In this document: positions 1 to 30,662 of the stretch, one piece after another
How positions within the stretch are numbered: the stretch's first letter is position 1
Layout: each line of letters opens with the position of its first letter
Source of the DNA: Planctomycetota bacterium
GTDB taxonomy: Bacteria; Planctomycetota; UBA8742; JACQVU01; JANLHZ01
NCBI GenBank assembly: GCA_024653775.1
Contig: JANLHZ010000293.1
Span: 400 to 64,399 of the forward strand
Direction of reading: 5' to 3'
DNA: 64,000 nucleotides
The notes under the pieces: generated by a model
The model's database searches: none
What the model was told of the DNA's origin: nothing
Seen by the model: only the letters and a program-made list of their open reading frames with translations
Program-made: the position numbers and the translations under genes

Positions 1-948
1 CCCGCTGGAATAGACGACAAAGGGTCAGTTCCGATTTCTGCAATTCCTGAATTTAATGCCATTGAACGTACTAAAGAAATTGACCACGGCCAAGAGATGA
101 TGCCGATCATAAAGATTGACCAAGAAAATTTGATACATGAAAAACTTGACCGGATTCCTTCCAGCGTGAGAGACGGAATTTCATTTATGGAAAAGAATGA
201 AAGTCAGGTTAATTCACGACCGGTAAGTAGAAATGTGCTGGGTCTAAAGACTCGTGTCTCTACTTGTACATTTGAAGTTCTTGTCGGTGCTTACATTCCA
301 GAGAAGTATATCGATGACCCATCTGATATTGGCCTGATTTCGTGGTACGAATTCGAGGGTGACGACCGAGGACCGGCAAGTAGCTCGGCAGAAACACAAA
401 CAAAAAGCCGAGTGTGGATGAAGTATAAAATTGATTTTTGCAATCAGCAGCAGTTGTTTTCATATGGCATTGGGACAACTCGTCGAGTTAAGTTGGAATA
501 TGCCAGATCATCGTATTACGGCATTCCGATCGTTAGGCCGTCTATAGTGAAAAGAGAAGAAGCAAGGGCCTCCGGCGCACATACGACTGGTAACGCGGTA
601 TTTCCAAATAATTGCAAGGTAGAAATCCACATGGAATCTGCCGAAAGCAATCCATTTATTTCTTTAGCCCCAGCTATCGACATTGTTTTTGATATGAATG
701 CGTGGCTTTCTGACGGGACGATTTACTGGAATTTTACAATGAAACATGATGGATTTCCAAATTATGAAGTTTGGATTTCTGGCGGCGATGACTGGGTGCA
801 GCAAGCGCCTCAGGCTGTATACTCGTTTGATCATGTGGCACACGGACAAGTGCCACTGTCATTACTTCCAGATGCTGAATGGACTAAAGAGATGTCAGGA
901 ACAATTTCAAATTTAGTCTGCAATTGCTGCCCAACAAAGAATGAATAA
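1..948 (+). CDS. Hypothetical protein, 5'-truncated by the window edge (complete 336-aa copy on the right arm). Cys-rich C-terminus CNCCPTKNE. Low-GC island.
   Basis: Long ORF. The mirror copy 62933..63943 is complete. No recognisable family motif. Confidence 0.5.
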   Translation, partial: PAGIDDKGSVPISAIPEFNAIERTKEIDHGQEMMPIIKIDQENLIHEKLDRIPSSVRDGISFMEKNESQVNSRPVSRNVLGLKTRVSTCTFEVLVGAYIPEKYIDDPSDIGLISWYEFEGDDRGPASSSAETQTKSRVWMKYKIDFCNQQQLFSYGIGTTRRVKLEYARSSYYGIPIVRPSIVKREEARASGAHTTGNAVFPNNCKVEIHMESAESNPFISLAPAIDIVFDMNAWLSDGTIYWNFTMKHDGFPNYEVWISGGDDWVQQAPQAVYSFDHVAHGQVPLSLLPDAEWTKEMSGTISNLVCNCCPTKNE

Positions 949-971
949 CAGATAAAGGATCAAGTTGATAA

Positions 972-1391
972 ATGGTCGATACTACGATTGAAAACAGTTT
1001 CTTGAAAAAGTTATTATTTGGCGCATTGGTAATTGTTACGGCCGTTACAAATATGTTAGAGTCATACGCAGCAGGTCCAGTTAGTCCTGGTGCTCTTTGG
1101 AATATTGCTATGTTGTTTTCTCGGTTTGGGTTCCTTGCGATGGTAACGTCCGGGATATTGATGCTTTTTATCAGGTATCAGTTGGCGATGGAAATATGTC
1201 TTATTGCAACTTTGATGATGTGGTCTACACAGTGGTGGTTTTTAATGGGATTTATCAAAGGCATAATAGGTGGATCATTGTCTTCTATTCTCTTTGTCAT
1301 CCCCCAGGTGCTTTTGTTGGTTGTTTTATTTGTTTCAATAAAAGGTTTTGCCACAACTGATGATGCAAGCAATAGCAATAGTTTTCGGTAG
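972..1391 (+). CDS. Small integral membrane protein (about 4 predicted TM helices), function unknown.
   Basis: 139-aa ORF dominated by hydrophobic segments, 23 nt after the upstream gene. Low GC. Confidence 0.5.
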   Translation: MVDTTIENSFLKKLLFGALVIVTAVTNMLESYAAGPVSPGALWNIAMLFSRFGFLAMVTSGILMLFIRYQLAMEICLIATLMMWSTQWWFLMGFIKGIIGGSLSSILFVIPQVLLLVVLFVSIKGFATTDDASNSNSFR

Positions 1392-1478
1392 ATGCTTTAT
1401 AGCTATTGAGCGTGCATGGAATTCGTTTTTCCATAACTACCATTATACCAATGACTTACAGTAAACTTAAAAACGCTT

Positions 1479-1685
1479 TTGACGGAACGGTACTTTGACC
1501 GTGGCGGCGAAGACAGATTGGAACTATATCCAAAGTACGAATTCGACTATAAAATATGCCACTCGGAGGAGTGCCCAAGCTTACCAAAGGAGGACATCAA
1601 TCCCAGTGACAACGTGGGTGCGGGTTTTGTGATTAGATCGGCTGAGATTACTGAAACCGGGAGTTTTCAGGAGTGGAATAAATGA
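1479..1685 (+). CDS. Small hypothetical protein (68 aa).
   Basis: ATGA stop/start overlap with the downstream gene suggests translational coupling. No homology recognised. Confidence 0.35.
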   Translation: MTERYFDRGGEDRLELYPKYEFDYKICHSEECPSLPKEDINPSDNVGAGFVIRSAEITETGSFQEWNK

Positions 1686-2398
1686 AAAATCGAAGGCTCA
1701 TAAAACGGATAATAATGATTTCGGTTTTCATTCTTCTAATAGCAGGCGGTGCGCGTCTTTACTGGTATCTATTCATCTACAATCCAGACTACCACCGGTA
1801 CGCTTTGATCAAGCAGACCATTGAGAATCAAAAAATTCCGGAGTCTTGGTCCGGTAATTTTAGAGTCGAATCTAAACTAAACGCAGACAGTATTGAAATA
1901 TTTATCCGGTCAGTCAATGAGGCCGTGTTCAATATCCGATACGATGAATGCGAAATTCGCGATCATTTTGGGCGACCTGTTTCAACCTATGTAACTCATT
2001 ATAGGTTACAGCTTAGTGAAACTCAATTGGGTTGGTTTAAATGGGTTCCTAACTGGCAACGTCTCGATCAACCAGATACAAATAATAACAAGTACTATTT
2101 TGAATTGGTTCGACGTATAGGCTTGAAACGAGCTTCATTTTGCCGTCCGGATACTAATCATGGAATGTGGGAATACAATATCTTTCCATTGCGTGATGGA
2201 TTCGGGCCGGATTCGAAGACAGAAGATTTCTTTGGCGAACGGTTCGTTGCGCACATTGTTATCGAAATGAACGATGAAGTTGGTTCGTTCGATTTTGTGA
2301 ATATGATGTACGCGTTTTCCAACGTTGTAAGCAAGACTAGTGTTGTTGACGGTCATAATGTACACGCTCAGTTAACATTGTATAGTGGCAAAGTGTAG
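1682..2398 (+). CDS. Hypothetical protein with an N-terminal TM anchor (238 aa).
   Basis: N-terminus MKNRRLIKRIIMISVFILLIAGG is hydrophobic. 4-nt overlap with the upstream ORF. Low-GC island. Confidence 0.5.
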   Translation: MKNRRLIKRIIMISVFILLIAGGARLYWYLFIYNPDYHRYALIKQTIENQKIPESWSGNFRVESKLNADSIEIFIRSVNEAVFNIRYDECEIRDHFGRPVSTYVTHYRLQLSETQLGWFKWVPNWQRLDQPDTNNNKYYFELVRRIGLKRASFCRPDTNHGMWEYNIFPLRDGFGPDSKTEDFFGERFVAHIVIEMNDEVGSFDFVNMMYAFSNVVSKTSVVDGHNVHAQLTLYSGKV

Positions 2399-2431
2399 GT
2401 TGAAAAATAGCAACATTTTAAGGGTTGTTTA

Positions 2432-2728
2432 ATGCCTTCAAACCTTAGGTTTTTCCGTTTCGACTTGAGCCAGAATCCGGTGGATTCGTTGATTTACGTC
2501 AAGGCGAATACGCTGCAGATCGAGCTTGAAGCTCCGGGTCCGCTCACGAGGCTGGGATTCATTCAGGTGGATAACAATCCGCCGATTCCGGTTTTCGACG
2601 CAACCGACCTCAATCTTGGATTCGTGCAGGACATCGAGCGCGTTCATCTGCGCTTTTATCAGGAAGCCGCGCCGGGGTATTCGCTGGTACTCACCGCAAG
2701 CACCGCCGCGAAGCTCGTCGTCGGGTAG
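2432..2728 (+). CDS. Hypothetical protein (98 aa).
   Basis: GC-rich ORF with typical codon bias, just after the low-GC island. No family recognised. Confidence 0.4.
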   Translation: MPSNLRFFRFDLSQNPVDSLIYVKANTLQIELEAPGPLTRLGFIQVDNNPPIPVFDATDLNLGFVQDIERVHLRFYQEAAPGYSLVLTASTAAKLVVG

Positions 2729-2828
2729 TTTTCTATTCCCCACGATTAAAGTTTGAACCTTTCTTCGTCGAAAGATGACCTGAGCTTCGTTCTCTCATCC
2801 CGGGAGGACCGATATTCATCCGCCTACG

Positions 2829-3581
2829 ATGATCCGCGAATATTTTAATCAGTCGAAAAACCTCGCCGTGAGCTATCTGTACGTGATGCCCGTACTCGTG
2901 CTCTACACCGCGGGTCTTAGCCTCGCGAGCGAATCGCAGGCGTCGCGGACGAATTCCATCGCCGACCTTTTTCTATGGATCGCGGACCAGTTCGGCCATC
3001 AGAACATTTTCAACGCGCTGATTTTCGCGGGAATTTTCGTCAGCCTCGTCTACCTCAAAAAGACCGAAACCGGAGTGTCGCTCAAATGGTTTCCGCTTGT
3101 CCTCGTCGAAAGCGTCGGCTATTCGTTTCTGTTCCTCGCGTTCGCGACGTTCTATTCCGCGAACCTTCTTTCGCTCGGGCAGGGCGAAGGCGAAATGACG
3201 CTCTATTTCGACGTCGTTCTTAGTTTCGGCGCGGGCATTTACGAGGAACTCTTTTTCAGGCTGATCCTTCTCACGGGACTTGTAAACTTTTTCAGATTCG
3301 TGATGCGCCGCGACACTCATCACGAGTCGGCGGACGAGCCTAGCGTCTACATTCTCGCGATCGCGACGCAGGCGATCCTGTTTTCGCTCGCGCATCATTT
3401 CGTGCGCACATCGAGCGGAGGGCTCGACCTCGTTATCGACAACACTCCGCTGTTCGTCTTCCGCGCGGTCTGCGGCGTTCTGTTCGCGTCGCTTTTCCTC
3501 GCGCGAGGCTTCGCGGTCGCGGTTTACACCCACGTGTTCTACGACGTCATCGTGACTCTGATTAACCGAGGAATCATGTAG
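2829..3581 (+). CDS. CPBP-family intramembrane metalloprotease (CAAX protease / Abi-like).
   Basis: Multi-TM protein with YEELFFR (EExxxR), FSLAHH (FxxxH) and HVFYD (HxxxD) motifs in the canonical order. Confidence 0.65.
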   Translation: MIREYFNQSKNLAVSYLYVMPVLVLYTAGLSLASESQASRTNSIADLFLWIADQFGHQNIFNALIFAGIFVSLVYLKKTETGVSLKWFPLVLVESVGYSFLFLAFATFYSANLLSLGQGEGEMTLYFDVVLSFGAGIYEELFFRLILLTGLVNFFRFVMRRDTHHESADEPSVYILAIATQAILFSLAHHFVRTSSGGLDLVIDNTPLFVFRAVCGVLFASLFLARGFAVAVYTHVFYDVIVTLINRGIM

Positions 3582-3611
3582 AAATGGCGCTGATTCTTTA
3601 CTTTTGATTCC

Positions 3612-4268
3612 TTGGACCGAAAAATAAATCTGCGTCATTCGCGAAATCCGCAGATGTTTCCAATGAAAATCAAAAATCAAAAATCAAAAATCAGAATTCG
3701 ATTTCGTGGTATTGCCGCGCTCTCGATCTGCGTGGGAATTGCGGTCTACTTGTTTTACGACGACATTTTCGTCTCGAATTTCGCGACGCCGCTGATTCCG
3801 GAAGTCGCTGCCCAGTACGGCATCGATCCGTGTCTGCTTGCAGCGGTGATCGAGGTGGAATCCGCCGGGCAGCCAGACGTGGTCTCGCGGTCCGGAGCGG
3901 TCGGACTGATGCAGATCATGCCGGACACCGCGAAATGGCTCGCGCAGACCCGGGGCTGGAATCACGACGAATCCAGACTCTCCGACCCTGGCTACAACCT
4001 GCATCTCGGTTCGTACTATCTGGCAATGCTGCTCGAACGACACTGCGGGGACGTCGCGCTCGCTCTCGCGGCGTACAACGCTGGCCCGGGGAACGTCGAT
4101 AAGTGGATGAACGCCCACCCCGGCACGAACTCTCTGGAACTGATCAATACGTACGCATTCACCGAGACGCGCGAATACGTTGGCAAAGTTCTTCGTATCC
4201 GTGATTATTTTCGAGCGCGGCAGAGCGATGTCGGCTGGTCGCTACCTCTGATTCGACGTCTGACATAG
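3612..4268 (+). CDS. Lytic transglycosylase (SLT domain, family 1) with an N-terminal membrane anchor.
   Basis: IEVESAGQP (catalytic Glu), GLMQIMP and AAYNAGPGNV motifs. The start may be 3612 or the internal ATG at 3663. Confidence 0.8.
   Translation: MDRKINLRHSRNPQMFPMKIKNQKSKIRIRFRGIAALSICVGIAVYLFYDDIFVSNFATPLIPEVAAQYGIDPCLLAAVIEVESAGQPDVVSRSGAVGLMQIMPDTAKWLAQTRGWNHDESRLSDPGYNLHLGSYYLAMLLERHCGDVALALAAYNAGPGNVDKWMNAHPGTNSLELINTYAFTETREYVGKVLRIRDYFRARQSDVGWSLPLIRRLT
3666..3693 (+). repeat. (AAAATCA)x4 perfect heptanucleotide tandem repeat inside the 5' end of the lytic transglycosylase CDS.
   Basis: Read directly: atgAAAATCAAAAATCAAAAATCAAAAATCAgaattcg, encoding KIKNQKSKI. The unit length is not a multiple of 3. 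Confidence 0.95.
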
Positions 4269-4281
4269 GCAGGCTCCGTCA

Positions 4282-4345
4282 TGCGTATGCGCGCGCAATA
4301 TATTGTGCACACCGTAAGGCGCAAGGTGCAAAATATAAAGCATAC
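4282..4345 (+). terminator. Long imperfect hairpin (gcgtatgc...gcatacgc, with inner arms tatattgtgcac / gtgcaaaatata) followed by a T-rich tract. Candidate terminator of the transglycosylase gene.
   Basis: Inverted repeats read directly, followed by ttaatttttttcaactttc. 14 nt downstream of the stop at 4268. Confidence 0.4.
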
Positions 4346-4409
4346 GCTTTAATTTTTTTCAACTTTCACTTTCATTTCCAAATAATTCTCAAGAACCTCT
4401 CTCGGGGGT

Positions 4410-4417
4410 GCCGATAA
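4410..4417 (+). promoter_or_regulatory. Sigma-28 (FliA)-type -10 element GCCGATAA upstream of flgM.
   Basis: Exact 8/8 match to the sigma-28 -10 consensus, 58 nt upstream of the flgM ATG. The -35 (TAAA) match is weak. Confidence 0.35.
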
Positions 4418-4475
4418 ATGAAATAGAAGTTGCGAGTCCTAATCAGACTCGTGACCTCGAGTCGATTCCATTTTT

Positions 4476-4826
4476 ATGGAGAGGAGTAAAATGACACTCG
4501 GGGAAATCAACAGCCCTCGTGCAAACGACGTTTCACGTCCGCGCGAGGCATCTGGTAAATCCAGAACGCCTGAGAAGTCGGAAGATGTCAAATCGTCTGG
4601 TTCCGGAAGTCACGATGACGTTCAGATTTCCGTTGCCGGCCGCCTTGCCGAAGAGGTGAACGCGGTCGCACGTGAAGTTAGAGCGTCGTTTAACGAAGTC
4701 CGGTATGATCGGATAGAAGACGTCAGACGTAAACTACAGGCTGGAACTTACGAAGATCCGGTTTATCTTGAAGCCGCTGTCGGCAAGCTTATCGACAACG
4801 AAATTCAGGATCTGATGCTCTCGTAA
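4476..4826 (+). CDS. flgM: Anti-sigma-28 factor FlgM.
   Basis: C-terminal RYDRIEDVRRKLQAGTYEDPVYLEAAVGKLIDNE matches the FlgM family signature. Strong RBS ggagaggag. Size 116 aa. Confidence 0.6.
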   Translation: MERSKMTLGEINSPRANDVSRPREASGKSRTPEKSEDVKSSGSGSHDDVQISVAGRLAEEVNAVAREVRASFNEVRYDRIEDVRRKLQAGTYEDPVYLEAAVGKLIDNEIQDLMLS

Positions 4827-4854
4827 GCGATCTTTAAAGTTTAGATTCGAAAAA

Positions 4855-4882
4855 AGCGTCCTCAAAAGGGACGCTTTTTTTG
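4855..4882 (+). terminator. Rho-independent, bidirectional-looking terminator (agcgtcc-tcaaaag-ggacgct + T7, with an A-tract upstream).
   Basis: 7-bp GC-rich stem, 7-nt loop and a ttttttt tail, 29 nt after the flgM stop. Confidence 0.75.
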
Positions 4883-4936
4883 TATAACCACAGGTTGATA
4901 GAATCATTGTCCGAGGCTAATATTCGAGGTCTTTCC

Positions 4937-5010
4937 GGGCCCTTAGCTCAGTTGGTTAGAGCAGTGGACTCATAATCCATTGGTCGCTGGTTCAAGTCCA
5001 GCAGGGCCTA
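4937..5010 (+). tRNA. tRNA with CAT anticodon, most like tRNA-Ile2 (lysidine-modified CAU) rather than elongator Met.
   Basis: Cloverleaf GGGCCCT/TAGCTCAGTTGGTTAGAGC/anticodon loop CTCATAA/TGGTCGCTGGTTCAAGTCCAGCAGGGCCT. The anticodon stem-loop and T-arm are near-identical to E. coli ileX. No encoded CCA. Confidence 0.85.
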
Positions 5011-5062
5011 CTTTCACTTTTTGTCGATCCAGAAGACCTCGAAAGGACGCCGCGGGTGCAGG

Positions 5063-6031
5063 ATGAATGCCGCCATAACCTTCAGTCGGGTAACGAAGGT
5101 CTTCCAGCATAGACAGGTTGCGCTCGCGGACGTCAGCTTCGAGGTCCCGAAGGGAGTAACCGTCGGACTGCTCGGCGCGAACGGCGCGGGGAAATCCACC
5201 GCGATCAGAATCGCGCTCGGACTCATAACCGCAAGCGCAGGCGACGTCCAGGTCTTTGGCGAAGCGATGCACCCGGGCGCGAAGTCTCTCCGCCAGAGAA
5301 TGGGTTTTCTGTCCGACGATCCGGCGTATCCGCGTGATCTCACCGCGATCAGCTACCTCGCGTTCGTCGGCAAGTGCTTCGGTATGCCACGCAAGGAACG
5401 CCTCGGAAGGATGGGGACGCTGCTTCGCGCGGTCGGGCTTACCGACGACGCCGGGCGGAAGATCGGAACCTTTTCGACGGGCATGAAGACCCGCCTCGGC
5501 ATTGCCGCGTCGCTTATGAACGATCCGGAGATTCTGATCTGGGACGAACCGACGTCGGGACTCGATCCGATAAGTCGCCGGCAAACGCTCGATCTTCTCG
5601 ACGAATATCACGGAAAGAAAACGATCGTCCTGAGTTCGCACATTCTTGGCGACGTGGACCGCGTTTGCGACAGACTTCTCGTCCTGAATCAGGGTCAGGT
5701 ACTCTTCGACGGGCATCGCGGGGAGTTGGAGAATCAGACTCGCGAATTCATCCTCGAGCTTCGACTCGAAGGCGCGGTGGGGGACTTCCGCGCGGCCATG
5801 CGATCTAGGCTCGGCCGCGAAGACCTCTGTCAGGACGGCGGGACGGTGCGGATCGAACTTTCAGGCGCGGGCGAACTGCATCTGACGGTCGAGTCGCTGC
5901 TTGCGCTCGCAAAGGAAACCGGCGTCACAATCGCAGGGATCAACTCAACCTCCCGGCGGCTGGAAGACGCGTATCTGAAACTGATCTCGGAAGACGAGTA
6001 TCGCGGACTGCTTCGCGTTGCGGAAAGTTGA
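5063..6031 (+). CDS. ABC transporter ATP-binding protein (ABC-2/export type).
   Basis: Walker A GANGAGKST, signature-like FSTGMKTRLG, Walker B ILIWDEPTSGLD and H-loop SSHIL. The start was moved from 5021 to the ATG at 5063 because the ORF track start lies 11 nt after the tRNA. Confidence 0.85.
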   Translation: MNAAITFSRVTKVFQHRQVALADVSFEVPKGVTVGLLGANGAGKSTAIRIALGLITASAGDVQVFGEAMHPGAKSLRQRMGFLSDDPAYPRDLTAISYLAFVGKCFGMPRKERLGRMGTLLRAVGLTDDAGRKIGTFSTGMKTRLGIAASLMNDPEILIWDEPTSGLDPISRRQTLDLLDEYHGKKTIVLSSHILGDVDRVCDRLLVLNQGQVLFDGHRGELENQTREFILELRLEGAVGDFRAAMRSRLGREDLCQDGGTVRIELSGAGELHLTVESLLALAKETGVTIAGINSTSRRLEDAYLKLISEDEYRGLLRVAES

Positions 6032-6037
6032 ACATAA

Positions 6038-6122
6038 AATTCGTACCGTCTACGAATTTTATGTATGATTAAAAATGCTGATTAAAATAATACGAATAAT
6101 TCGTAGACGGCACGAATAAAAT
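6038..6122. repeat. Inverted pair of a ~24-nt element (AATTCGTAGACGG[C/T]ACGAAT) flanking a 36-bp AT-rich spacer between the ABC ATPase and permease genes.
   Basis: 6038..6060 aattcgtaccgtctacgaatttt is the reverse complement of 6098..6120 with one mismatch. Each copy is itself a 6-bp-stem hairpin. Confidence 0.6.
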
Positions 6123-6128
6123 GTTCAG

Positions 6129-7832
6129 ATGGCGATGTTGCAAAAAATTATCGGGCTTCGAGGATCGATCTCCTTCAGAGCGCTGCGGACGATAGCTGCG
6201 GCGGATTTGAGATCGATCGTGAGGTCTAAGCTGTGCTGGGGATTTTTCATCGTCAGTGCGCTGCTCACCACGCTTACTCTGAAGGGAATGCAGACGGGTG
6301 AGGAGCCAGCGATCAGGATGCTCGAGGCGGTCTACGGTACGTACATCATTATCTGGATGCACGCGGTGATTTTTATCGCCGGGTCGGCTCTGATGCGAGA
6401 GTCTGACTGCCTGATGGAAGGAATCCTCAGCCGCGGGATTACGCGAGGCGAATATATCGCGGGGAAGCTGGTCGCGAGGTCGATTGCGATTCTTTTCGTT
6501 GTCGGCGGTGTGCTTCTTCCCGCTGGATTCTGGGCAATCCGTCAGGACGCGCTCACCCGCACCGACACGGGTTTCGTCGCTTCGAACGAGTGGAACACCA
6601 AGGTCGAAGCTCACGATCCGCAGCAGCTCTATTCAGGCGCGGAAGGAAACATCATCGAGATGAAGGTGAAAAACGGAGATCAGGTCGACGCGGGTCAGGT
6701 GCTCATTCTGCTCGACGATCGAAGGCTGTTCGACGATCTCGAGTGGAAGCGCAGGGATCAGGAGAACGCGCGGCAGGAGGTCGAGAACGCGGAGCGGAGG
6801 GTCGAGGACGCGGAGCGTGCGGTCGTAGCCGCGGAGGAGACGCTCACCCAGTCGAGGCGCGAGTTCGAGGCGGCTCGTGCGAACACCGTCGGCGTCAGCG
6901 AAAACGATCGCGCGAAACTCGAGGACGCGGTCAACGGCCGGGAACGGGACCTGGAAACCGCGCGAAACCGCGTTCCTCTCGAGACGGCGTCGGTCGATCG
7001 CGCCCAGCGCGCGCATGACGTCGCGAGCGATCAGGTGCGGCAGGCCCGCGAGCGTCTGACCCACGCGGTGGTCGTGAGTCCGATCTCAGGCCACCTGATC
7101 GAGACGAAGGTCCAGAGCGGGCAGTGGGTTGCGCAGGGGACGCATCTGCTTACGGTCGCGCCGCTGTCGGAGTTCGAACTGCACGTGCCGGTGTACGATT
7201 TCGAGGACTTCCAGAGGCTGAAGGAAGGACTCACGGCGTACGTCACGGTCGAGGACACGGAATTCATCGGGAAGGTCGAACGCGTCGGCGCGACGACGGA
7301 ACCGGACAAATGGCAGCGTCCCACGAATTTCGCGGTGGTACGTTTCAGCTCGAACGGCGCGCGCGGTCTGCTCGGACTCGGCGCGGAAGTCAAAATCGCG
7401 CTGCCTCCGCCCGAAGAGGACCGCACGATGGCGGACGAGATTTTCGACACGCTTACAGGTAGAGGCAAGGACGATCTGGACACGCGCACCGCGTCCGTGA
7501 CGTATTTCTGGATGCTCGTCGGGTTTGCGAAGGTCATAGGCTGCGCGATGCTGCTCGTCACGCTTTCGCTCTTCGCGACGGCGCTGTTTCGTAGCGCGCT
7601 GTTCTCGATTCTGGGCGTCGTCGGACTCTGGCACGTTTCGAATCTGCTTTTCGATTTCGCCGGGCTTCCGGAGCTTTCGTACATCGAGATCATGGGCACG
7701 ATGGACAAGGTGCTCGCGGGCGCGTCCGGCGCGGGCGACGAAATCGCAGCGCTATGCTGGCTCTACGGAATTTCCGCGGTCCTTGGCGTGCTGACGGTCT
7801 ATGTCTTCACAAAGCGAGATCCGGTGAAGTGA
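6129..7832 (+). CDS. Membrane protein: ABC-2-type permease-like TM domain fused to a HlyD-family (biotin-lipoyl hairpin + coiled coil) periplasmic adaptor domain, with a C-terminal TM segment.
   Basis: N-terminal and C-terminal TM helices. EGNIIEMKVKNGDQVDAGQVLILLDD and VVSPISGHLIETKVQSGQWVAQGTHLLTV lipoyl-like half-sites flank a long Glu/Arg-rich coiled coil. Immediately downstream of the ABC ATPase. Confidence 0.55.
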   Translation: MAMLQKIIGLRGSISFRALRTIAAADLRSIVRSKLCWGFFIVSALLTTLTLKGMQTGEEPAIRMLEAVYGTYIIIWMHAVIFIAGSALMRESDCLMEGILSRGITRGEYIAGKLVARSIAILFVVGGVLLPAGFWAIRQDALTRTDTGFVASNEWNTKVEAHDPQQLYSGAEGNIIEMKVKNGDQVDAGQVLILLDDRRLFDDLEWKRRDQENARQEVENAERRVEDAERAVVAAEETLTQSRREFEAARANTVGVSENDRAKLEDAVNGRERDLETARNRVPLETASVDRAQRAHDVASDQVRQARERLTHAVVVSPISGHLIETKVQSGQWVAQGTHLLTVAPLSEFELHVPVYDFEDFQRLKEGLTAYVTVEDTEFIGKVERVGATTEPDKWQRPTNFAVVRFSSNGARGLLGLGAEVKIALPPPEEDRTMADEIFDTLTGRGKDDLDTRTASVTYFWMLVGFAKVIGCAMLLVTLSLFATALFRSALFSILGVVGLWHVSNLLFDFAGLPELSYIEIMGTMDKVLAGASGAGDEIAALCWLYGISAVLGVLTVYVFTKRDPVK

Positions 7833-7927
7833 GTACGCTTTCGTAGTGGCTTGTAAGGCGATTCTTTAATCCGCTCGCTACGATCTGGAAAATATGCTCT
7901 CACGAGCACACTACGAACGGATTTCCC

Positions 7928-9268
7928 CTATAGACCACGAATCTGTTTCAGAAGCTCGATGAATCCGGGTTTCCAGCCGTAGTCGGGAGACAGGACCCGC
8001 TGGTGCCAGATAACCGTCGCGACGCCCCGCACATTTTTGATTTCGTCCAGCCAGCGGGAGATCGCCGTTTCGAGGCTGGCGCTCGCGCTTAAGCTGTAAT
8101 CGTAAATCTGGGAATCCATCAGAACCATCGGGATCGCCTCGATTCGCAACTTTTCGCCGGTGGATTCACAAACGGGATTATAGCGGAGCGCGCATCCGCT
8201 TCGGAATCCCGGGCGGTCGTTGAAGCCGAGGGTCGTATCGAGTTCGAACCCGGCGTCCTGCTGCGCGCGCCAGGTGTTTTCGAAACTGAACCGCAGCCAA
8301 TGCTGACGGCAGGACTTGATTTCGATTCCAGCGGCATTTTCGATCTTCGACTTCTGCGCGCGCATCAGCTCCGCGTCCGCGAACGCGTCATAGCTCTGGT
8401 GCAGGCCGATGGTCCAGCCCAGTTCGCGCAGTTCCCTGATCTTGGACGAAATTCGCTCGGCGCTGACGTCGTAGGCGGGGTCGAGGATCATGTTCTTCAT
8501 CGTGCGACGGAATCCGGGCGGCCCGCCGTAGAAGTTGAAATGACTTCGGACGCCGCGCTCCTCCTCGAGTGCGGCGACCTCGCCTAGCCTGAAATAGTCG
8601 GCGCGAGAGAAGAAGAACGAAAGCGCTTTCGCCATCCGCAAGGTGGATTTCAGCGGCGACATCCCGAGCATCAGCCGTAGCGCGTTGAAGGCGTGAAACG
8701 CGCTCTGTTTGAACCGCACTTCGAAGGTTTTCGAAAGCGCGTCCACGTCGTGCGTCACGATGATTTCCGCGGGGGGAAGCTCTCCGAAGAGCGCGATTTC
8801 GTCCGTCTGTCTGTCCCGCGCGATCTTCCTGCGCAGGTAAAGTCCGATGCGGTTCGCCCAGGCGTAATCGAACATCCGCGAATCCGCCTCGCGCAGTCTG
8901 TGCGCGAACGAATGCACCGGCCCGTGGATTTTTTCGTGCGCCCGTTCCCACGTCGAGTTGATGAACCAGAATGCCGCGCGGAGGAGGTCTACTTCTTCCG
9001 CGGTCGATTCACGCCCTTTGGCGCAGAACTTCAGAGGCACGAGGAGCTTTCCGTCCACGCCGACGTCTTTCGCGAATTCCGGAAGCGGGACCAGGGCAAG
9101 CTCCGGCGGGAACGTCTCGCCCTCCGTAGCTTCGACATCCGGACACGCGGACAGCACATCGGCCTCGTGCTCCGGAAAGTAGCGCGCGAGACTGCGAGCT
9201 GCGTGGGTTCTTGTCGCTTCGAAGTTCGTCAATCGCTTCCGCTGGATGTAGGAGCGCACGGCGTGCAC
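7928..9268 (-). CDS. Polysaccharide deacetylase-like (CE4/NodB-fold) protein. Start uncertain.
   Basis: Motif order VTHDVD ... GLHQSYD ... RQHWLRF ... DTTLGFND ... IWHQ resembles the CE4 motifs. The ORF track start (9619) overlaps the upstream mdh gene, so the start was placed at the GTG at 9268 after the intergenic hairpins. Confidence 0.45.
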   Translation of the reverse strand: MHAVRSYIQRKRLTNFEATRTHAARSLARYFPEHEADVLSACPDVEATEGETFPPELALVPLPEFAKDVGVDGKLLVPLKFCAKGRESTAEEVDLLRAAFWFINSTWERAHEKIHGPVHSFAHRLREADSRMFDYAWANRIGLYLRRKIARDRQTDEIALFGELPPAEIIVTHDVDALSKTFEVRFKQSAFHAFNALRLMLGMSPLKSTLRMAKALSFFFSRADYFRLGEVAALEEERGVRSHFNFYGGPPGFRRTMKNMILDPAYDVSAERISSKIRELRELGWTIGLHQSYDAFADAELMRAQKSKIENAAGIEIKSCRQHWLRFSFENTWRAQQDAGFELDTTLGFNDRPGFRSGCALRYNPVCESTGEKLRIEAIPMVLMDSQIYDYSLSASASLETAISRWLDEIKNVRGVATVIWHQRVLSPDYGWKPGFIELLKQIRGL

Positions 9269-9273
9269 CCTTG

Positions 9274-9302
9274 CTGCGGACGAGGACGTCCGCGGTCCCA
9301 GG
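9274..9302. repeat. 28-nt exact repeat TGCGGACGAGGACGTCCGCGGTCCCAGG (contains a CGGACG-agga-CGTCCG hairpin), copy 1. A second hairpin gcagacg-gga-cgtctgc lies at 9311..9327.
   Basis: Identical 28-mer at 11275..11302. Both copies sit just downstream of gene ends. Confidence 0.6.
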
Positions 9303-9333
9303 AATGCGCAGACGGGACGTCTGCACTCCCGGA

Positions 9334-10341
9334 TTATAGATTCGGGTTGAACTTGTTCCACTCCGAAATCGAAGGGAGCACCTTCAGGCTGCCTATGCAC
9401 TCGTCGCGGAGTTTTACGAGGTGGTGGTAGCTTTCGCGCAGCGCCGCGTTGTCTGCGTCGTCGCCTTGCGGAATCTTGTAGCTGACGCCCTCCGGAGTGA
9501 TGGTCGTATCGACCGCCATCATAATGTTTTTGAACTCGCCCTGATCGACGTACGTCCCGGCGGGCCAGCCGAACGGGTGGTTCCCTGAAATCCGCGCGCG
9601 GAGCATATCCACCGAACACTGCGCGGGACTCTGGAAGCTCGACCTGCCGCGGAGTTGGATGATCGCCTTTCCGCCCTGGCAGGTGTCGTCCTTGATCTTT
9701 TTCCAGTCGGCTTCCGAAAGCGTTCCCGAAGATATGACCTCTTTCAGCGACTTGCCTTTTACCTTGATGCCGCCGCCGAAGACGGCCATCTGCTCGCCGT
9801 GACCTCCGAACGTGCGGCAGCCGGTGACTTCGTCCGTGGCGACCCCGAGATGTTTCGAAAGATTCCTGCGGAGCCGCGTCGAATCCAGCGCTGCGAGAGT
9901 GAGCACGCGATCCTTCGCGAGTCCGCTGTAAACGAGAGTCGTCAGCCCGGTTATATCAGCGGGGTTGAAAATTATGATCGCTAGTTTCGCGTTCGGGCAG
10001 TACTTTTTTATGTCTTCGCCGAGGCCTTTGGCGATTTCGCAGTTCCCGGCGAGAAGGTCTTCGCGGGTCATTCCGTCTTTTCGCGGGGCGCCGCCGGAGG
10101 AGATGATGTATTCCGCGTCCTTCAGAACGTCACTGACGTTCGTCGAGAAGGTGACGGTTGCGTTCGGGAAGCCGCAGTGGAACATCTCCTCTGCCGCGCC
10201 TTCGAGTCCCTTTTCGAAGGGATCGTACATCGCGACGTTGCTCGTCGTTCCGGTGCAAAGAAGAATCTGTGCGAGGTTCGATCCGATCGCGCCCGCCGCG
10301 CCGAGAACCGCGACTTTCGAATTCGTCAGGTACTGCATCAT
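9334..10341 (-). CDS. mdh: Malate dehydrogenase (LDH/MDH family, NAD-dependent).
   Basis: KVAVLGAAGAIGSNLA Rossmann motif, IIFNPAD, ALDSTRLRRNL substrate-Arg motif and GGHGEQM catalytic-His motif. 335 aa. Confidence 0.65.
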   Translation of the reverse strand: MMQYLTNSKVAVLGAAGAIGSNLAQILLCTGTTSNVAMYDPFEKGLEGAAEEMFHCGFPNATVTFSTNVSDVLKDAEYIISSGGAPRKDGMTREDLLAGNCEIAKGLGEDIKKYCPNAKLAIIIFNPADITGLTTLVYSGLAKDRVLTLAALDSTRLRRNLSKHLGVATDEVTGCRTFGGHGEQMAVFGGGIKVKGKSLKEVISSGTLSEADWKKIKDDTCQGGKAIIQLRGRSSFQSPAQCSVDMLRARISGNHPFGWPAGTYVDQGEFKNIMMAVDTTITPEGVSYKIPQGDDADNAALRESYHHLVKLRDECIGSLKVLPSISEWNKFNPNL

Positions 10342-10429
10342 TCGCTCCTTAATATATGAACGCCGTGAATAAAATCCGGGAAAACGTAGTTATTGAGTGT
10401 AATCTGACTATCCTACCTAATCTACTTGC

Positions 10430-11086
10430 GTGCAAGAGCATTCACATTTTGATAGAGTCGCGCATATGTTAAAACACAGCCCAACTTTTTTGGAAGGCGA
10501 CGAGAATGGCAGCCACGATGCCCCGGGACCGCTAGAGGAACTCGCTCGCGGTCTTTTAGTCCACATCGGCGAAGATCCTGACCGTGAAGGACTTGTCAAA
10601 ACTCCGCACAGATTTCGAAAAGCGTGGGAATATTTCACTCAGGGCTATAACGCGAATGTTGCGGACATCGTGGGCGATGCGATATTCACCGAGGACACGG
10701 ACGAGATGGTTCTCGTGCGCGACATCGACTTCTTCACGATGTGCGAACATCACCTCGTTCCGTTTTTCGGGAAGGCGCACATCGCGTACATTCCAAACGG
10801 CAAGATCATTGGCCTTTCGAAGATTCCGAGGATAGTCGAGGTCTTTGCGCGAAGGCTCCAGGTTCAGGAGCGGATGACGCAGCAGATCGCGAAAGCCATC
10901 GAGGAAGCCCTGCGCCCCCAGGGAGTCGGCGTCGTCATAGAAGCGCTGCACCTTTGCATGGCGATGCGAGGCGTCGAGAAGCATCTTTCAAGCACCGTGA
11001 CGAGCGCGCTTACAGGGTGTTTCCGCAGCGAAGAAAGCACTCGCGCAGAGTTCCTCAGCCTCGTCCGCAGCGGTAAGCTGATGTAG
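10430..11086 (+). CDS. folE: GTP cyclohydrolase I.
   Basis: [49 protein letters not shown] and HLCMAMRG are diagnostic FolE motifs. Confidence 0.9.
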
Positions 11087-11107
11087 TCGGATCCGTCTTC
11101 GTACATT

Positions 11108-11135
11108 TTATTCGTGCCGTCTACGAATTATTTGT
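11108..11135. repeat. Third copy of the AATTCGTAGACGGCACGAAT(AAAATG) element (reverse orientation), downstream of folE.
   Basis: cattttattcgtgccgtctacgaatta is the reverse complement of the copy at 6098..6122. Confidence 0.55.
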
Positions 11136-11274
11136 ACGATCACGTCCCGGATTTCCTGGAATCGCGACGGATCGTTGCGCTCACAGCCGCACTCCTGAGA
11201 TTCGCACTTAGAAACTATCTCAAGCGAGCGACATCGATAATTTGGAGCCGTCGAACGAAACGTTTGACGGCTTT

Positions 11275-11302
11275 TGCGGACGAGGACGTCCGCGGTCCCA
11301 GG
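11275..11302. repeat. 28-nt exact repeat TGCGGACGAGGACGTCCGCGGTCCCAGG, copy 2.
   Basis: Identical to 9274..9302. Lies between the folE 3' end and the stop of the 1268-aa gene. Confidence 0.6.
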
Positions 11303-11333
11303 TGCCTACGATAGTTTATTTTGTTCCGAGGCC

Positions 11334-14300
11334 TTAGATCAGCCCGAGCAGCTTTCTGCCGATCCACTCGACGATAAGGAAGCTCAGGACGAACGCGAGA
11401 ATCATCACGTCGTTGTTCGTGTCTTTCCACCAGGGTCGCGGCGGCTTCTTGGTCGGGATTTCGCGGACCTCGCTCGCGATCGGCACTTCGTCGAGCGCGC
11501 TGAAGAAATGGAACGCGCGGGCGCTGCCTCCAAGCGGCGACGCGACATTTCGAAGCAACTCGATGTTCATCGTCGTGTCCCGGAACTCCCGGATTGGAAC
11601 TTTCACCTCGAACCTGTGCGGCGATTCCTCGGAATCCGCGAGTCCCGGAATCCAGATTTCGTAAGTCCCAGCGCGGTGCGGCGAGAAGTCTCCGGAAAAG
11701 TTGGTCCCGGTTCCGTCGGTCTGATGGAGTTCGATTCTGTGCTCGAGGTTGTCGCCCTGATCCCTGCGATATAGCACGGGCAGGATCGTTTCGTCGCTGT
11801 GCCTTGAACTCGGCATCGGTATTTCGCGCCTAAGATTGACGCCTTCGAGCGCGCCGTAGATGGTCACCTGCTCTCCCAGTGAGTAGTTTTCCTTGTCGGT
11901 GTAGAGCTGGTAGCCTTCCTGCCTTTTCGAAAGGCTCTCGCTTGAAACGAAGCGGATCAGGTTCGACCAGAATGGATAGAAGTACTGATCGTCGTCCCAC
12001 CACTGCCTGAACCGCCAGATTCCCTCGACCGCGATGAAGAACACGAGTCCGCTTCCGTAATAGTGATATGAGACGAGAGGGAACGCGCCGCGGCGGCTCT
12101 CCGCCTCGCGGTGTCGTACGAGAACGCTCGCAAGCTGCTTGACCTTCGTCGTCGGGTAGAACCAGTAAAACGGCGGCAGCGCGAAATACTCGGGATCGCC
12201 GTTCCAGAGGTAGAGGTTCTGCTGTTCATTTGGAAGCAGCCTGAGCGCTGGATGGCTCGCACCGTCGGGAGTCAGCACGTAATGCTGGGGAACGTGCTCC
12301 TTCACTTCGAATACGTTCGGCCCGGACTCGCTCAGGTCTACCGGAAGCAGCCTTTGAATGTAAGAATCGCTCGACGAGTACGAGCCTGGCATCGAGACCG
12401 GTCCCGCCTGCACGATGAGTCCGCCGTTGTTATCCTTCACGTACCGCCAGAGAAGTTCCTGAATCATCGGCGTCAGATAATTCGGCGGCACGTCGCCCAG
12501 AATGATGACGTCGTAGTAGAAAAGGTCGGTCGGAAGTTCCTTGCCTTCACCGGTGGGAATTTCTTCGAGGGGCATGTAGTTCGCGGTGCGATCCTCGTAC
12601 ATCCAGCCCGATATCGGCTGGTGCCAGCCCGTGTTAGCGCTCGTCAGGAAGCCGTAGTATTCGAGGTTCGGATCGCGCCTTAGAGCCTCGTTCAGGAACC
12701 TGAAATCGTACCTCGGTGGTCCGTCGATGTAGAGAACCCTGATCTTGCGGTCCTTGATCGTGATTGTTATCGGTTTGTAGTTGTTCTCGAATTTCTCTTC
12801 GCCTTCGAGGGCCCGCTTATTCACCATCACGTAGAACGTGTACGTTCCGGGCTTGAGGTCGGGCGGATTGGCGAACACTCCGGCTGGATCGTTCGCGTGG
12901 CGGAAATACTTGTTCGTCCCGAACCGGAGCGTGAACCTGCTTATACGTCCCGCTTCCGGAAGCTGGATGTCCACGCCGCGGCCGGGATTCTGATTCGCCG
13001 CCATGCCGCTTAGCGTCTCGAACGGAGTGATGTGATCCGCGTCTGGCGCGCCTTCGCAGAGATAGACCTCTGACGGCGTGTTCTCGCCAAAGCCTTCCGC
13101 GCGGATCGCCACGGAAAGCTGCACGATCTCTCCCTTGATGACCTCCCGCGGACCGCTGACTTCGAGCACCTCGACGTCCTTCTTTCTCTTGGAAGAACCG
13201 ACCCCGACGGTATCGACGCGAATGTTCTGTTCGCCTTCGCGATAGATAGCGGACGTTTCGAGCGGGTCGGCGCCGTCGGTGTTCTGCCCGTCCGAGATAA
13301 TGATTATCTGCACGATGCGCGCTTCCGCGTCGGCCATCATTACGCGATTGACCGCCTCGGAAATTCCATCGCCTATGCGCGTCTGGTTCCCCTGCGGCGA
13401 GACCGAATCGAGTCCGTCCGCGGTGATCTCGGTAAGAACGCCTGCGCCTTCCGCGAACCGCTGGTTGAAGAGGAACAGCTTCAGCTCGTTCTTCTCCTCG
13501 ATCGCCTTCAGAAGCTCCCTCGAATACCTCTGCACGATGTTCCGGTCTGTGTGCGGCATCAGAAGCTCGGATGCTATATCGAACCTGCTCATACCGGAGC
13601 CTTTGATATTCACAAGATTCTGGTGGATGGTCTGCAGACGGGTGAGAGCCGCTTTCGAAAGGACATCGCCGAGTTTGACGTTCAACGCCGCGAATCTCTC
13701 GCGTAGCGACTCGACTTTCGTCTCGTTTTCCGGACTCAGAACCGCGAGCGCGACGCTGTGCCAATTTTCGCTCCGCTCTGACGCTTCGTACCTGATTTTG
13801 AAACTCTCGCCGAGGATTTTATCGAGTTCGCCCGGATTTTCCTCTGAAAGCGAATCCTTTCCCGCCGTCACGACCGCGGGCATGTCGAGCTTAGCCGAAA
13901 ATTCCGCGACCTCGGACTCGCGCTGCTCGAACGCGCTGATCGCGATCTCGTCCGTGGAGGGAGGACCATCCGCGAGGAGCGCCACGATCTTCTCCTCGTC
14001 CTGGGCGCGGAAGGCTTCGTGGTACTCCTTCCATTCGCCGGTCTGGTCGACGAGTTCGAATAGCAGTCTCCGGTATCGCACGCCTTCGAGGATCTCGCGC
14101 GTTTGTTCGAGGTCGCGTTCGTCCTGATCCGCGTATTTGTCGGTGCGGACGCTCATCGAACTGGACGCGTCGACGAGAACAATCGTTGTGCTCTTCAGTT
14201 TGCGGATTTCGAGGCCTTCGATCACCGCCTGGAAAATCAGGAACAGAATGCTCGCGACGATCATCACGCGGATGAACGCGAGCATGGTTCTTCCGTGGCT

Positions 14301-15140
14301 CTTCGCGCTTTCGTGCTCGAGTTTGTAGAACGCCAGAATGAAGAGCACTCCGAAGGGAACGATCAGAAGCACCGTCGCCCACGCGGGTGGGATCGAAAGG
14401 AATTCGAAACTCGAAACGTCGCTGCTTGCGACCTTCGCGAGTCCGAAGAGGTCCGCGATTTTAGCCGCGAGGTCGTTTCCGCCGTAGCCCGCAAGAAGCG
14501 CCACGCCAAGAAACGGAAGCGAAAACGCGACTACGATCCAGCCGAGAATGAACGCGGTGACTCCTCCGAGTTTCGGGTCGGACTTGACGCCCTCGTCTTC
14601 TTCGGACGCGTCGCCTTCGAGCAGTCTTCGAACCCCCCGGCTGAAGAACGCGAGAAAGCCTGTCATGATGCCGAGAAAGAATCCAGAGGCGAACATCGCA
14701 AGCCCGAGGAGCGTCTTGATTGCGCCGCGGTATCCGGGTTCGTCGAAGCGGGTGACGATCGAGTAGATCAGCACGAGGTAGCACACGACGAAAACGTACC
14801 CGAGCACGGGAAGCAGTCCGTATCCGAGTCCGAGTCCGAGAAGCGCGGTGTAATCGAGGTTGAGCGCCGCTACGATTCTGTGCCCCATGATCACGAGAGG
14901 GACGAACGCGAGCGAAAGGCAGATGCCGCCCGTGATTGCGAGCGTCAGGACCCTCTCGCGCGGAATACGGATGTACGCGAACCAGAAGATGAGGAGAAGC
15001 AGCACGAGGCAGAGCACGCCTACGCCGAGTCCGAAGAACACTCCGTTCTCGCCCGTGAGGATTTCACCCCACTTGCCTAAGAACATCGAAAAGTCTCTGG
15101 CCTCTGCCACTGATTCTGCTGTCTGGAAGATGAATTTCAT
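11334..15140 (-). CDS. Large membrane protein with a BatA-like N-terminal multi-TM region, a VWA domain and a long C-terminal region (GATase1/ThuA-like segment) ending in a TM helix.
   Basis: TIVLVDASSSMS (MIDAS DxSxS) and IVQIIIISDGQNTDG VWA motifs. Multiple N-terminal TM helices. 1268 aa. Confidence 0.6.
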   Translation of the reverse strand: MKFIFQTAESVAEARDFSMFLGKWGEILTGENGVFFGLGVGVLCLVLLLLIFWFAYIRIPRERVLTLAITGGICLSLAFVPLVIMGHRIVAALNLDYTALLGLGLGYGLLPVLGYVFVVCYLVLIYSIVTRFDEPGYRGAIKTLLGLAMFASGFFLGIMTGFLAFFSRGVRRLLEGDASEEDEGVKSDPKLGGVTAFILGWIVVAFSLPFLGVALLAGYGGNDLAAKIADLFGLAKVASSDVSSFEFLSIPPAWATVLLIVPFGVLFILAFYKLEHESAKSHGRTMLAFIRVMIVASILFLIFQAVIEGLEIRKLKSTTIVLVDASSSMSVRTDKYADQDERDLEQTREILEGVRYRRLLFELVDQTGEWKEYHEAFRAQDEEKIVALLADGPPSTDEIAISAFEQRESEVAEFSAKLDMPAVVTAGKDSLSEENPGELDKILGESFKIRYEASERSENWHSVALAVLSPENETKVESLRERFAALNVKLGDVLSKAALTRLQTIHQNLVNIKGSGMSRFDIASELLMPHTDRNIVQRYSRELLKAIEEKNELKLFLFNQRFAEGAGVLTEITADGLDSVSPQGNQTRIGDGISEAVNRVMMADAEARIVQIIIISDGQNTDGADPLETSAIYREGEQNIRVDTVGVGSSKRKKDVEVLEVSGPREVIKGEIVQLSVAIRAEGFGENTPSEVYLCEGAPDADHITPFETLSGMAANQNPGRGVDIQLPEAGRISRFTLRFGTNKYFRHANDPAGVFANPPDLKPGTYTFYVMVNKRALEGEEKFENNYKPITITIKDRKIRVLYIDGPPRYDFRFLNEALRRDPNLEYYGFLTSANTGWHQPISGWMYEDRTANYMPLEEIPTGEGKELPTDLFYYDVIILGDVPPNYLTPMIQELLWRYVKDNNGGLIVQAGPVSMPGSYSSSDSYIQRLLPVDLSESGPNVFEVKEHVPQHYVLTPDGASHPALRLLPNEQQNLYLWNGDPEYFALPPFYWFYPTTKVKQLASVLVRHREAESRRGAFPLVSYHYYGSGLVFFIAVEGIWRFRQWWDDDQYFYPFWSNLIRFVSSESLSKRQEGYQLYTDKENYSLGEQVTIYGALEGVNLRREIPMPSSRHSDETILPVLYRRDQGDNLEHRIELHQTDGTGTNFSGDFSPHRAGTYEIWIPGLADSEESPHRFEVKVPIREFRDTTMNIELLRNVASPLGGSARAFHFFSALDEVPIASEVREIPTKKPPRPWWKDTNNDVMILAFVLSFLIVEWIGRKLLGLI

Positions 15141-15306
15141 TCAGCCGCGTCTTTTTTTAGTCCTTGGAATTTAACGACTCACAATTAAAGCATGTATCTG
15201 AAAAAATTCCACGACTGTTAACTACTTTCTTCCAATGCGTGGTTCAATATGTCGAAAGACTTGTAAATCGGTTTTCCGCCGGCGCGGAAATTCATTTCCG
15301 GAGTTT

Positions 15307-17562: not shown

Positions 17563-17662
17563 AGCGCAAATGCCCGCGGATTATGATTTTGACAGCTTAC
17601 GCGTAGCTTGGCGGAACCCACGCGTTCACCAGTTTCACGCCCATTCCTTTTCAAGGAAACTT

Positions 17663-19406: not shown

Positions 19407-19412
19407 TATATA

Positions 19413-20153: not shown

Positions 20154-20334
20154 GAACGATCCGGATCGAGGTGTCCAGCGCAATTTAGCAGGTTGCCGAC
20201 ATTCTGGCGATAGGGAACAAAATTTCTCCATGGGCGATTTTGCTTGTATTATTGTGATTTTGTTTTAGAATCGTACTTCACAGATATTAGGGAAAATTTG
20301 CCCTGACAGACGCCCCCGCGTTTCTTAGGACCTG

Positions 20335-22479: not shown

Positions 22480-22497
22480 CATTTACGGGAATTATCT

Positions 22498-23424: not shown

Positions 23425-23444
23425 GACACGCAGGGATTGGTATT

Positions 23445-23792: not shown

Positions 23793-23815
23793 TTCACCGG
23801 GATCGATCCGCGGCC

Positions 23816-30661: not shown

Positions 30662-30662
30662 A

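Follow-up and report, generated by a model that had tools for sequence, protein, structure and literature searches.

A four-unit AAAATCA array at the 5′ end of a planctomycete lytic transglycosylase gene

The window analysed here, a stretch of 64,000 nucleotides from a planctomycete MAG, carries four perfect copies of the heptamer AAAATCA directly downstream of the start codon of a gene for an SLT-family lytic transglycosylase (Table 1). This array is far above chance expectation and represents a new instance of the known heptanucleotide LSSR class. We propose, with modest confidence, that it is an ordinary short heptanucleotide SSR, derived from an in-frame slippage insertion of 21 nt into a protein tail under low constraint, and not a programmed switch.

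Array, gene architecture and translation start

Both TRF (period 7, 4.0 copies, 100 % matches, unit AAAATCA) and a regex scan bear out the four perfect copies that an earlier, sequence-only reading of this DNA had reported. In the unique 31.9 kb of the window the longest lag-7 identity run is 22, whereas in 100 shuffles that preserved dinucleotides the longest runs averaged 7.8 and did not exceed 14, and the number of such arrays expected from base composition is ~1e-8. The same reading had called such repeats rare by chance in 60%-GC DNA; the rarity is supported by the shuffles and the composition estimate, whereas the GC figure is not, as the window has 55 % GC and the leader and array together (3582..3700) 34 %. 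With its heptameric unit and a length beyond that given by a composition-preserving random model, the array falls under the definition of Mrazek-type LSSRs, which have units of 5-11 nt.

Table 1 Location and basis of the features discussed in the text
Feature	Coordinates	Strand	Basis
AT-rich leader between the CPBP/Rce1-like gene and the SLT gene	3582..3662	+	~34 % GC counted with the array
SLT-family lytic transglycosylase gene, 201 aa	3663..4268	+	ORF list; Pfam PF01464, E=4e-32; exact database match
Lys/Arg-rich cytoplasmic tail (n-region) MKIKNQKSKIRIRFR	3663..3707	+	Homologue alignment; array supplies residues 2-10
(AAAATCA)x4, perfect heptanucleotide array	3666..3693	+	TRF; regex; chance test
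Hydrophobic signal anchor GIAALSICVGIAVYLFY	3708..3758	+	Kyte-Doolittle; coincides with homologue TM segments in the alignment
SLT catalytic domain, aa 45-153	3795..4121	+	Pfam; invariant alignment columns
Secreted CAP-domain protein gene	25674..27758	-	Pfam CAP, E=4e-8
(GTTGTTA)x4.1 array; (TAACAAC)n on the gene strand	27792..27820	-	TRF; sequence; ORFs
Reverse-complement image of the AAAATCA array	60188..60215	-	TRF; palindrome test; same locus, not independent

Like other members of this class, the array consists of a tandem 5-11-nt unit extending beyond the composition expectation, and we see no difference in kind. An excess of heptamers among the longer-unit SSRs of prokaryotes has been ascribed to polymerase slippage (Mrazek et al. 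2007, as presented in PMC4679880), and heptamers are also the commonest unit here. In the 31.9-kb unique arm, which is only 32 kb of genome, perfect arrays of three or more copies number three, of which two are heptameric, and so are 38 of 81 further perfect arrays in 845 kb around the comparison loci described below, where tetramers (22), hexamers (10), octamers (6) and nonamers (4) are fewer and pentamers absent. These 38 heptamer arrays are built from many different units, most of them A-rich. The original Mrazek survey reported a tendency of non-triplet units to avoid coding sequence; of the AAAATCA arrays in our sample, in contrast, half lie in frame within coding sequence. The other heptamer array of the arm, (GTTGTTA)x4.1, lies 34-62 nt upstream of ATG 27758, the start of the gene for a secreted CAP-domain protein.

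The whole window is a perfect palindrome in which position p pairs with position 63881-p, with 0 mismatches over 63,880 positions, and only 1..31940 is unique sequence. Since the window folds back on itself in this way, the mirror array that the earlier reading had listed as a further place to count units is the same locus read backwards and not a second copy, and we rejected it as independent confirmation. With this fold-back, the assembly is probably no faithful image of the molecule.

The array occupies codons 2-10, extends one base into codon 11 and encodes K-I-K-N-Q-K-S-K-I. It lies directly 3′ of ATG 3663, from which the frame reads MKIKNQKSKIRIRFRGIAALSICVGIAVYLFY..., with MKIKNQKSKIRIRFRG followed by the hydrophobic anchor. 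The frame, the homologue alignment and the hydropathy profile agree with the previous placement of this peptide between ATG 3663 and a membrane anchor. The anchor comprises residues 16-32, with values of 1.5-1.8 in 19-residue Kyte-Doolittle windows, and the PF01464 match to the catalytic domain covers profile positions 3-109 of 117 (E=4e-32). Together with this match, the catalytic Glu-Ser motif, invariant among the aligned homologues (E83/S84, 218-aa numbering), places the protein in the SLT family. Translation from ATG 3663 gives exactly the 201-aa NCBI MAG protein P0001 ('Planctomycetes bacterium'), known from one contig. In all 25 homologues of similar size, Met is followed by a short K/R tail, a single TM anchor and the SLT domain. 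As the K/R tail varies greatly in length among these 25 proteins, the array falls where constraint on the protein is lowest.

In-frame starts upstream of ATG 3663 are ATG 3654 and TTG 3612. The latter had been read as an ATG; the codon is TTG, but the point made with it, that the array would still lie within that frame, holds in the in silico rebuild of the locus. Downstream of the array, the only start-like codons in frame are ATT 3696, ATT 3711 and GTG 3732. We rejected all three since they are without an SD-like motif and would delete the tail common to the homologues, and GTG 3732 falls in the middle of the anchor. The earlier reading had named translation from downstream of the repeat as a result that would count against it; no usable start was found there, and the array is within the coding region. 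Because homologues retain the tail and no usable start lies downstream, the array is probably translated, as part of the positively charged cytoplasmic tail.

The SLT gene is flanked by a CPBP protease gene and a FlgM-like gene, and its neighbourhood is of housekeeping character. The enzyme is a housekeeping-type cell-wall enzyme, that is, an envelope enzyme but not of the typical phase-variable class. A role as flagellar lytic transglycosylase, considered on account of the FlgM-like neighbour, is not supported, because the FlgM match is sub-threshold (24.1 bits, under the Pfam cut-off of 25) and the arm has no further flagellar genes. In the AT-rich leader no SD-like motif was found, and no consensus promoter or terminator was predicted within 3582..3700, so a promoter or terminator role for the array was set aside. 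At the Rfam gathering threshold, neither leader nor array gave a match, the sole match being a tRNA at 4937..5010; a known RNA element at the array was likewise discarded, with only chance-level Rfam hits nearby.

Unit number, reading frame and known heptanucleotide switches

We rebuilt the locus in silico with 0-8 AAAATCA units. From each of ATG 3663, ATG 3654 and TTG 3612, the frame with the enzyme is kept only at 1, 4 and 7 units, and 0, 2, 3, 5, 6 or 8 units lead to products of 34-155 aa. Rescue by upstream starts in other frames was rejected since the rebuilt loci contain no start upstream of the anchor, in any other frame, that would restore the shifted SLT frame. These models agree with the earlier claim that gain or loss of one unit shifts the frame, with truncation and no rescue, and a change of one unit in either direction would be a clean knock-out of the SLT gene. 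Judged from the models and by analogy with neuO of Escherichia coli K1, the arrangement appears mechanically valid as a switch.

The gene neuO, carried by the CUS-3 prophage of E. coli K1, has (AAGACTC)n in its 5′ coding region (PMC13001214). It shares with the SLT locus a 7-nt unit at the 5′ end of the CDS, a full-length product in one of three unit classes and a repeat peptide that forms an N-terminal extension. Alleles of neuO have 3-53 units, most often 20; the gene is OFF in 65.6 % of complete genomes, and at 21 units 7 % of the cells in one culture were off by one unit (PMC13001214). The SLT locus, which belongs to a free-living planctomycete MAG, differs in having four units and a single known allele, with none OFF, and in encoding a housekeeping-type enzyme. 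In hmw1A/hmw2A of Haemophilus influenzae, 13-38 heptanucleotide units are located ~70-100 bp upstream in the promoter and modulate transcription in a graded way with no frameshift (PMC2651432). This system likewise has a heptanucleotide SSR at the 5′ end of an exported-protein gene, and it resembles the array upstream of the CAP-domain gene more closely than the one in the SLT gene.

A contingency locus, in which reversible slipped-strand mispairing toggles the SLT frame such that cells with and without the enzyme are always present, is unlikely in our judgement. The array has what this would take: a perfect non-triplet unit inside the CDS (codons 2-11), truncation to 34-155 aa on a change of one or two units with no rescuing start, and a design identical to that of a proven switch, neuO, which is ON in one frame only. 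A second heptamer array, in the leader of the gene for the secreted CAP-domain protein, points the same way. Four units also exceed the cut-off of at least three heptamer units applied in H. influenzae, but this cut-off is explicitly permissive (PMC2651432), and the SLT array, although longer than chance, is 3-10 times shorter than the heptanucleotide arrays of validated switches, which have 13-38 units (hmw) or typically ~20 (neuO, with 65.6 % OFF). This shortness matters since switching rate depends on, and scales with, repeat number, as recorded in the timeline of PMC11868660 (De Bolle 2000, Bayliss 2012). The gene class and the housekeeping neighbourhood also argue against a contingency locus. 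Were the array a true switch, it would be one of few cases in which a free-living planctomycete varies in phase, with a peptidoglycan-remodelling enzyme as the target, but the present evidence does not warrant that status.

P0001, looked up by exact protein, is not on record in the contig index. In the metagenome collection, a search with both flanks and gaps allowing 1-9 units gave 0 hits, as did the downstream flank by itself, and among 15 billion protein sequences the next-best hits do not exceed 52 % identity and match in the catalytic domain only. There is, therefore, no second allele or close relative in the collections searched, and strain comparison is impossible in these collections, in which the homology search showed one contig and no relative above 52 % identity.

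AAAATCA arrays in other genomes

We scanned one genome per species for the 28-mer (AAAATCA)x4 and recovered at least 120 loci; the source MAG is absent from the at least 120 comparison loci listed. The matches listed come from Patescibacteria/Saccharibacteria, Saprospiraceae, Akkermansiaceae, Planctomycetaceae, Phycisphaerales, cyanobacteria (Rivularia, Microcoleus and Anabaenopsis) and others. Cyanobacterial genomes also contain STRR (short tandemly repeated repetitive) sequences, tandem heptamers scattered through the genome that are long, mostly intergenic and built from few family-specific units. Among the 120 matches listed, 79 arrays have 4.x units, 30 have 5.x units and 11 are longer. 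The arrays are codable in the sense orientation only, since (AAAATCA)n is open in all three frames and its reverse complement, (TGATTTT)n, has TGA in every frame.

Frame status was classed by open stretches of at least 60 codons. By this measure, 61 of the 62 intragenic arrays among the 120 matches listed lie in frame within intact ORFs, and the single OFF-like array is really situated in a 5′ leader beside a tRNA. About half of the arrays among the matches listed are deep inside ORFs, coding and in frame. Ten host ORFs were checked with Pfam and correspond to PheS (twice), ArgS, Pth, GltX, MnmA, IspG, PolA, LeuS and the CCA-adding enzyme; in each of them, Pfam matches flank the array. Coding arrays among the matches listed measure 28-38 nt (one 57 nt) and non-coding arrays reach 86 nt, and this length limit on coding arrays points to selection for frame and not to free switching.

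Orthologous pairs give a similar picture. Array length is equal within 2 nt in all four pairs over a flank identity of 53-100 %, namely a PheS pair (L003/L073; 31 and 33 nt; flanks 60-64 % identical), an IleS-like pair (L011/L081; 33 and 32 nt; 53-54 %) and the pairs L027/L095 (32 and 32 nt; 87-94 %) and L022/L113 (33 and 33 nt; 99-100 %). Taken as a proxy for the SLT locus, the same-length AAAATCA arrays among the 120 matches listed show no real OFF allele, and the four orthologous pairs show no length change beyond 2 nt. This comparison again argues against a contingency locus, given that identical arrays of 4-5 units are ON in 61 of 62 cases among the matches listed, essential genes included, and keep their lengths. 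The earlier claim of a classic contingency locus is thus unsupported: the tract is short, identical arrays are in frame in 61 of 62 cases among the matches listed, lengths are conserved and the gene is of housekeeping type.

On this comparative evidence, the presence of a 4-5-unit AAAATCA array in a gene does not identify a contingency locus, because most such arrays are kept in frame in ordinary and often essential genes. However, consensus genomes and MAGs hide minority alleles, and an OFF allele is lethal in an essential gene; the ratio of 61 in 62 therefore indicates that the arrays are undiagnostic and not that they never slip. For genome scans this is a caution: a gene with a perfect non-triplet repeat of 4-5 units cannot be called a contingency locus on that ground, since essential genes, among them those for aminoacyl-tRNA synthetases, carry identical arrays in frame. 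These comparisons also bring into focus the long-standing question of why heptamers are favoured and how in-frame expansion occurs in essential genes. Among the matches listed, many uncultivated lineages carry such in-frame arrays within essential genes.

The layout of ATG, array and hydrophobic segment recurs in three unrelated exported proteins, an ApbE lipoprotein (L026), L041 (by sequence alone) and a prepilin (L108). This recurrence shows that K-rich n-regions are a recurrent and tolerant landing place for such arrays.

Within our preferred reading, that of an ordinary SSR, we hypothesise that replication slippage within the A-rich codons of the Lys/Arg-rich tail made the array. A one-unit tail would read MKIRIRFRG, a perfectly normal n-region, and the next larger count that keeps the frame is four units (+21 nt, seven residues). 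The four-unit state could then be an in-frame gain of 21 nt and seven residues over a one-unit ancestor starting MKIRIRFRG.... Such an insertion would be tolerated if the tail need only be short and positively charged, and may even be mildly favoured through three added lysines and an A-rich initiation region. The rebuilt loci predict that gain or loss of one or two units would inactivate the gene, and the comparative data and the literature suggest that at four units slippage would amount to rare mutations removed by selection.

Against the reading as an ordinary SSR, the perfection of the array implies recent origin or ongoing slippage. A second four-unit heptamer array, in the leader of an exported-protein gene and within the same 32 kb, likewise stands against it and would fit a small 'phasome'.

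Position at translation starts and remaining alternatives

Of the non-coding arrays among the matches listed, 7 of 59 end within -4..+8 nt of a gene-start ATG, defined as one that opens at least 100 codons, compared with 0.97 expected from random non-coding positions (P=5e-5). A further four arrays among the matches listed begin 3-7 nt past such an ATG, against 0.94 expected. Pfam profile coordinates confirm the starts for FliQ (L035, from a Planctomycetaceae MAG), CoaE, a LeuD-type protein, PfkB and an amidohydrolase, and the arrays after the ATG encode the n-region of the ApbE lipoprotein and the leader of the prepilin, in the same layout as in the window. This enrichment at start codons is partly built in, since 'AAAAT' followed by G makes ATG and leaders and n-regions are A-rich.

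These positions bear on a translation-initiation element, in which the A-rich heptamers would form an SD-independent, unstructured landing pad for ribosomes or an RNA-binding-protein site and unit number would tune SLT translation, an explanation that we regard as rather improbable. The SLT start is without an SD-like motif, and AAAATCA arrays are enriched at start codons elsewhere among the matches listed (7 of 59 vs 0.97, and 4 vs 0.94). However, only about one third of the window genes have SD-like motifs, so that an SD-less start is normal for this organism, and the enrichment is partly built in, with half of the arrays among the matches listed lying deep inside ORFs. The predicted accessibility around the SLT AUG hardly moves with unit number (0.38 with one unit vs 0.46 with four), and an effect of unit number on RNA structure was rejected as negligible.

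A precedent for an element of this kind is found in the TAACTGA repeats of marine Beggiatoaceae, Cyanobacteria and Bacteroidetes, in which 2-6 direct heptamer copies occur at starts in SD-poor genomes and have been proposed as sites for a translational regulator (MacGregor 2015, PMC4679880). Those repeats are placed just upstream of the start, with one heptamer at ~169 sites in one genome. In contrast, the AAAATCA array lies past the ATG and is probably translated, and the second array of the window, which also favours an initiation element by being in a 5′ leader, ends 34 nt upstream of its ATG and not within a few nt of it. The two arrays differ in unit (AAAATCA and TAACAAC, in only 32 kb), unlike the single-heptamer TAACTGA network.

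It is distinctly improbable that the array is no passive debris of slippage but a piece of an actively maintained, cross-phylum heptamer system, whose A-rich arrays would arise in multi-unit steps, be kept perfect at starts and in surface loops, those of essential proteins included, and in this planctomycete provide low-frequency ON/OFF or dosage control of envelope proteins, acting on SLT via the frame and on the CAP-domain protein via the leader.

An assembly artefact, in which the array or its unit count would stem from the faulty assembly that made the contig palindromic, is suggested by the perfect fold-back of the whole window with 0 mismatches, but has a negligible chance of being correct given that the 28-nt array is shorter than any read and its consensus length not assembly-dependent, that the intact, homologue-like ORF is kept in frame, and that identical arrays occur in at least 120 independent genomes.

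Heptamer arrays inside essential genes of other genomes

Among the listed matches to (AAAATCA) arrays of at least four units (loci L001-L120, from a 28-mer scan of one genome per species), the essential genes for PheS, LeuS, ArgS, GltX, Pth, MnmA, IspG, PolA and the CCA enzyme carry perfect (AAAATCA)4-5 arrays in frame in many Patescibacteria and in further uncultivated lineages. Some arrays share one loop in orthologues, with a flank identity there of just 53-64 %. Arrays in essential genes raise the question of how heptamer expansions of +21 nt arise without lethal +7 and +14 intermediates, and of why the arrays remain perfect. One of these loci (L033) carries three different perfect heptamer arrays in a single arginyl-tRNA synthetase gene.

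Coordinates of heptamer arrays and neighbouring features (window coordinates unless a locus is named)
Feature	Location	Remarks
Gene start ATGAAAAATCGA	1682..1693	single AAAAATC unit right behind ATG
FlgM-like ORF	4476..4826	Pfam, 24.1 bits, slightly below the 25-bit cut-off
tRNA gene	4937..5010	after FlgM-like ORF; Rfam, 73 bits
(GTTGTTA)x4.1, perfect	27792..27820	mirror 36061..36089; gene strand reads (TAACAAC)n
Stretch holding the fold-back point	31894..31991	AT-rich intergenic stretch
Palindrome centre	between 31940 and 31941	window 1..64000
AAAATCA array	L035 5275-5309	Planctomycetaceae MAG JBJXEX010000428.1; in array orientation
ORF with in-frame AAAATCA array	L003:1004-2128(-)	
ORF with in-frame AAAATCA array	L073:5749-6807	
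ORF with in-frame AAAATCA array	L030:1795-4353	
ORF with in-frame AAAATCA array	L068:3738-6377	
ORF with in-frame AAAATCA array	L033:1615-3279	ArgS-like
AAAATCA x5.1	L033 1775-1810	ArgS-like ORF
AAATACC x4.0	L033 1845-1872	ArgS-like ORF
AAATTTC x4.7	L033 2959-2991	ArgS-like ORF

Heptamer arrays in 5′ leaders

Other arrays are located directly before start codons. In the Planctomycetaceae MAG, the AAAATCA array directly abuts the start codon (ATG) of a gene for FliQ (Bac_export_3). Some 36 nt upstream is an inverted copy of 2.5 units (GATTTTTGATTTTTGATTT), so that a long hairpin could form in the leader and occlude the FliQ start. Five further loci (L057, L074, L106, L063 and L107) have 5′ leaders in which several different heptamer or near-heptamer arrays follow one another directly before the start codon. 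In a Saprospirales MAG, for example, the order is (AGTCAAT)n, (TCAAAAA)5, ATG; in an Anaerolineales MAG, (ATCGCAA)/(CTATCGCA) arrays precede (AAATCAA)5 and the ATG.

The window itself contains a second array, (TAACAAC)n, in the leader of the CAP-domain protein gene; it is 34-62 nt upstream of the start at ATG 27758, with an SD-like GGAG between array and ATG. The product from this start is a secreted protein of 694 aa with a long, low-complexity, Gly/Ser/Asn-rich middle and a C-terminal CAP domain. The single AAAAATC unit behind the ATG at 1682..1693 is the kind of seed from which the array in the SLT lytic transglycosylase gene could have expanded. Next to the SLT gene, a strong SD-like GGAGAGGAG (4478-4486) precedes ATG 4491, which is more probably the start of the FlgM-like ORF than ATG 4476.

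Palindromic structure of the window

The window is a perfect palindrome: across 63,880 positions, p complements 63881-p without a single mismatch, and all features at 31941..63880 are images of those at 1..31940. This palindrome is most likely an assembly or amplification artefact, and the size of the source contig (64,678 nt) is consistent with fold-back of the entire contig; read-through of a hairpin end is the less probable alternative. At the fold-back point, a 32-nt unit is present in about three copies (TRF period 32) and is rich in TTCGAA-centred inverted repeats. Local hairpins in this stretch may have triggered the fold-back.
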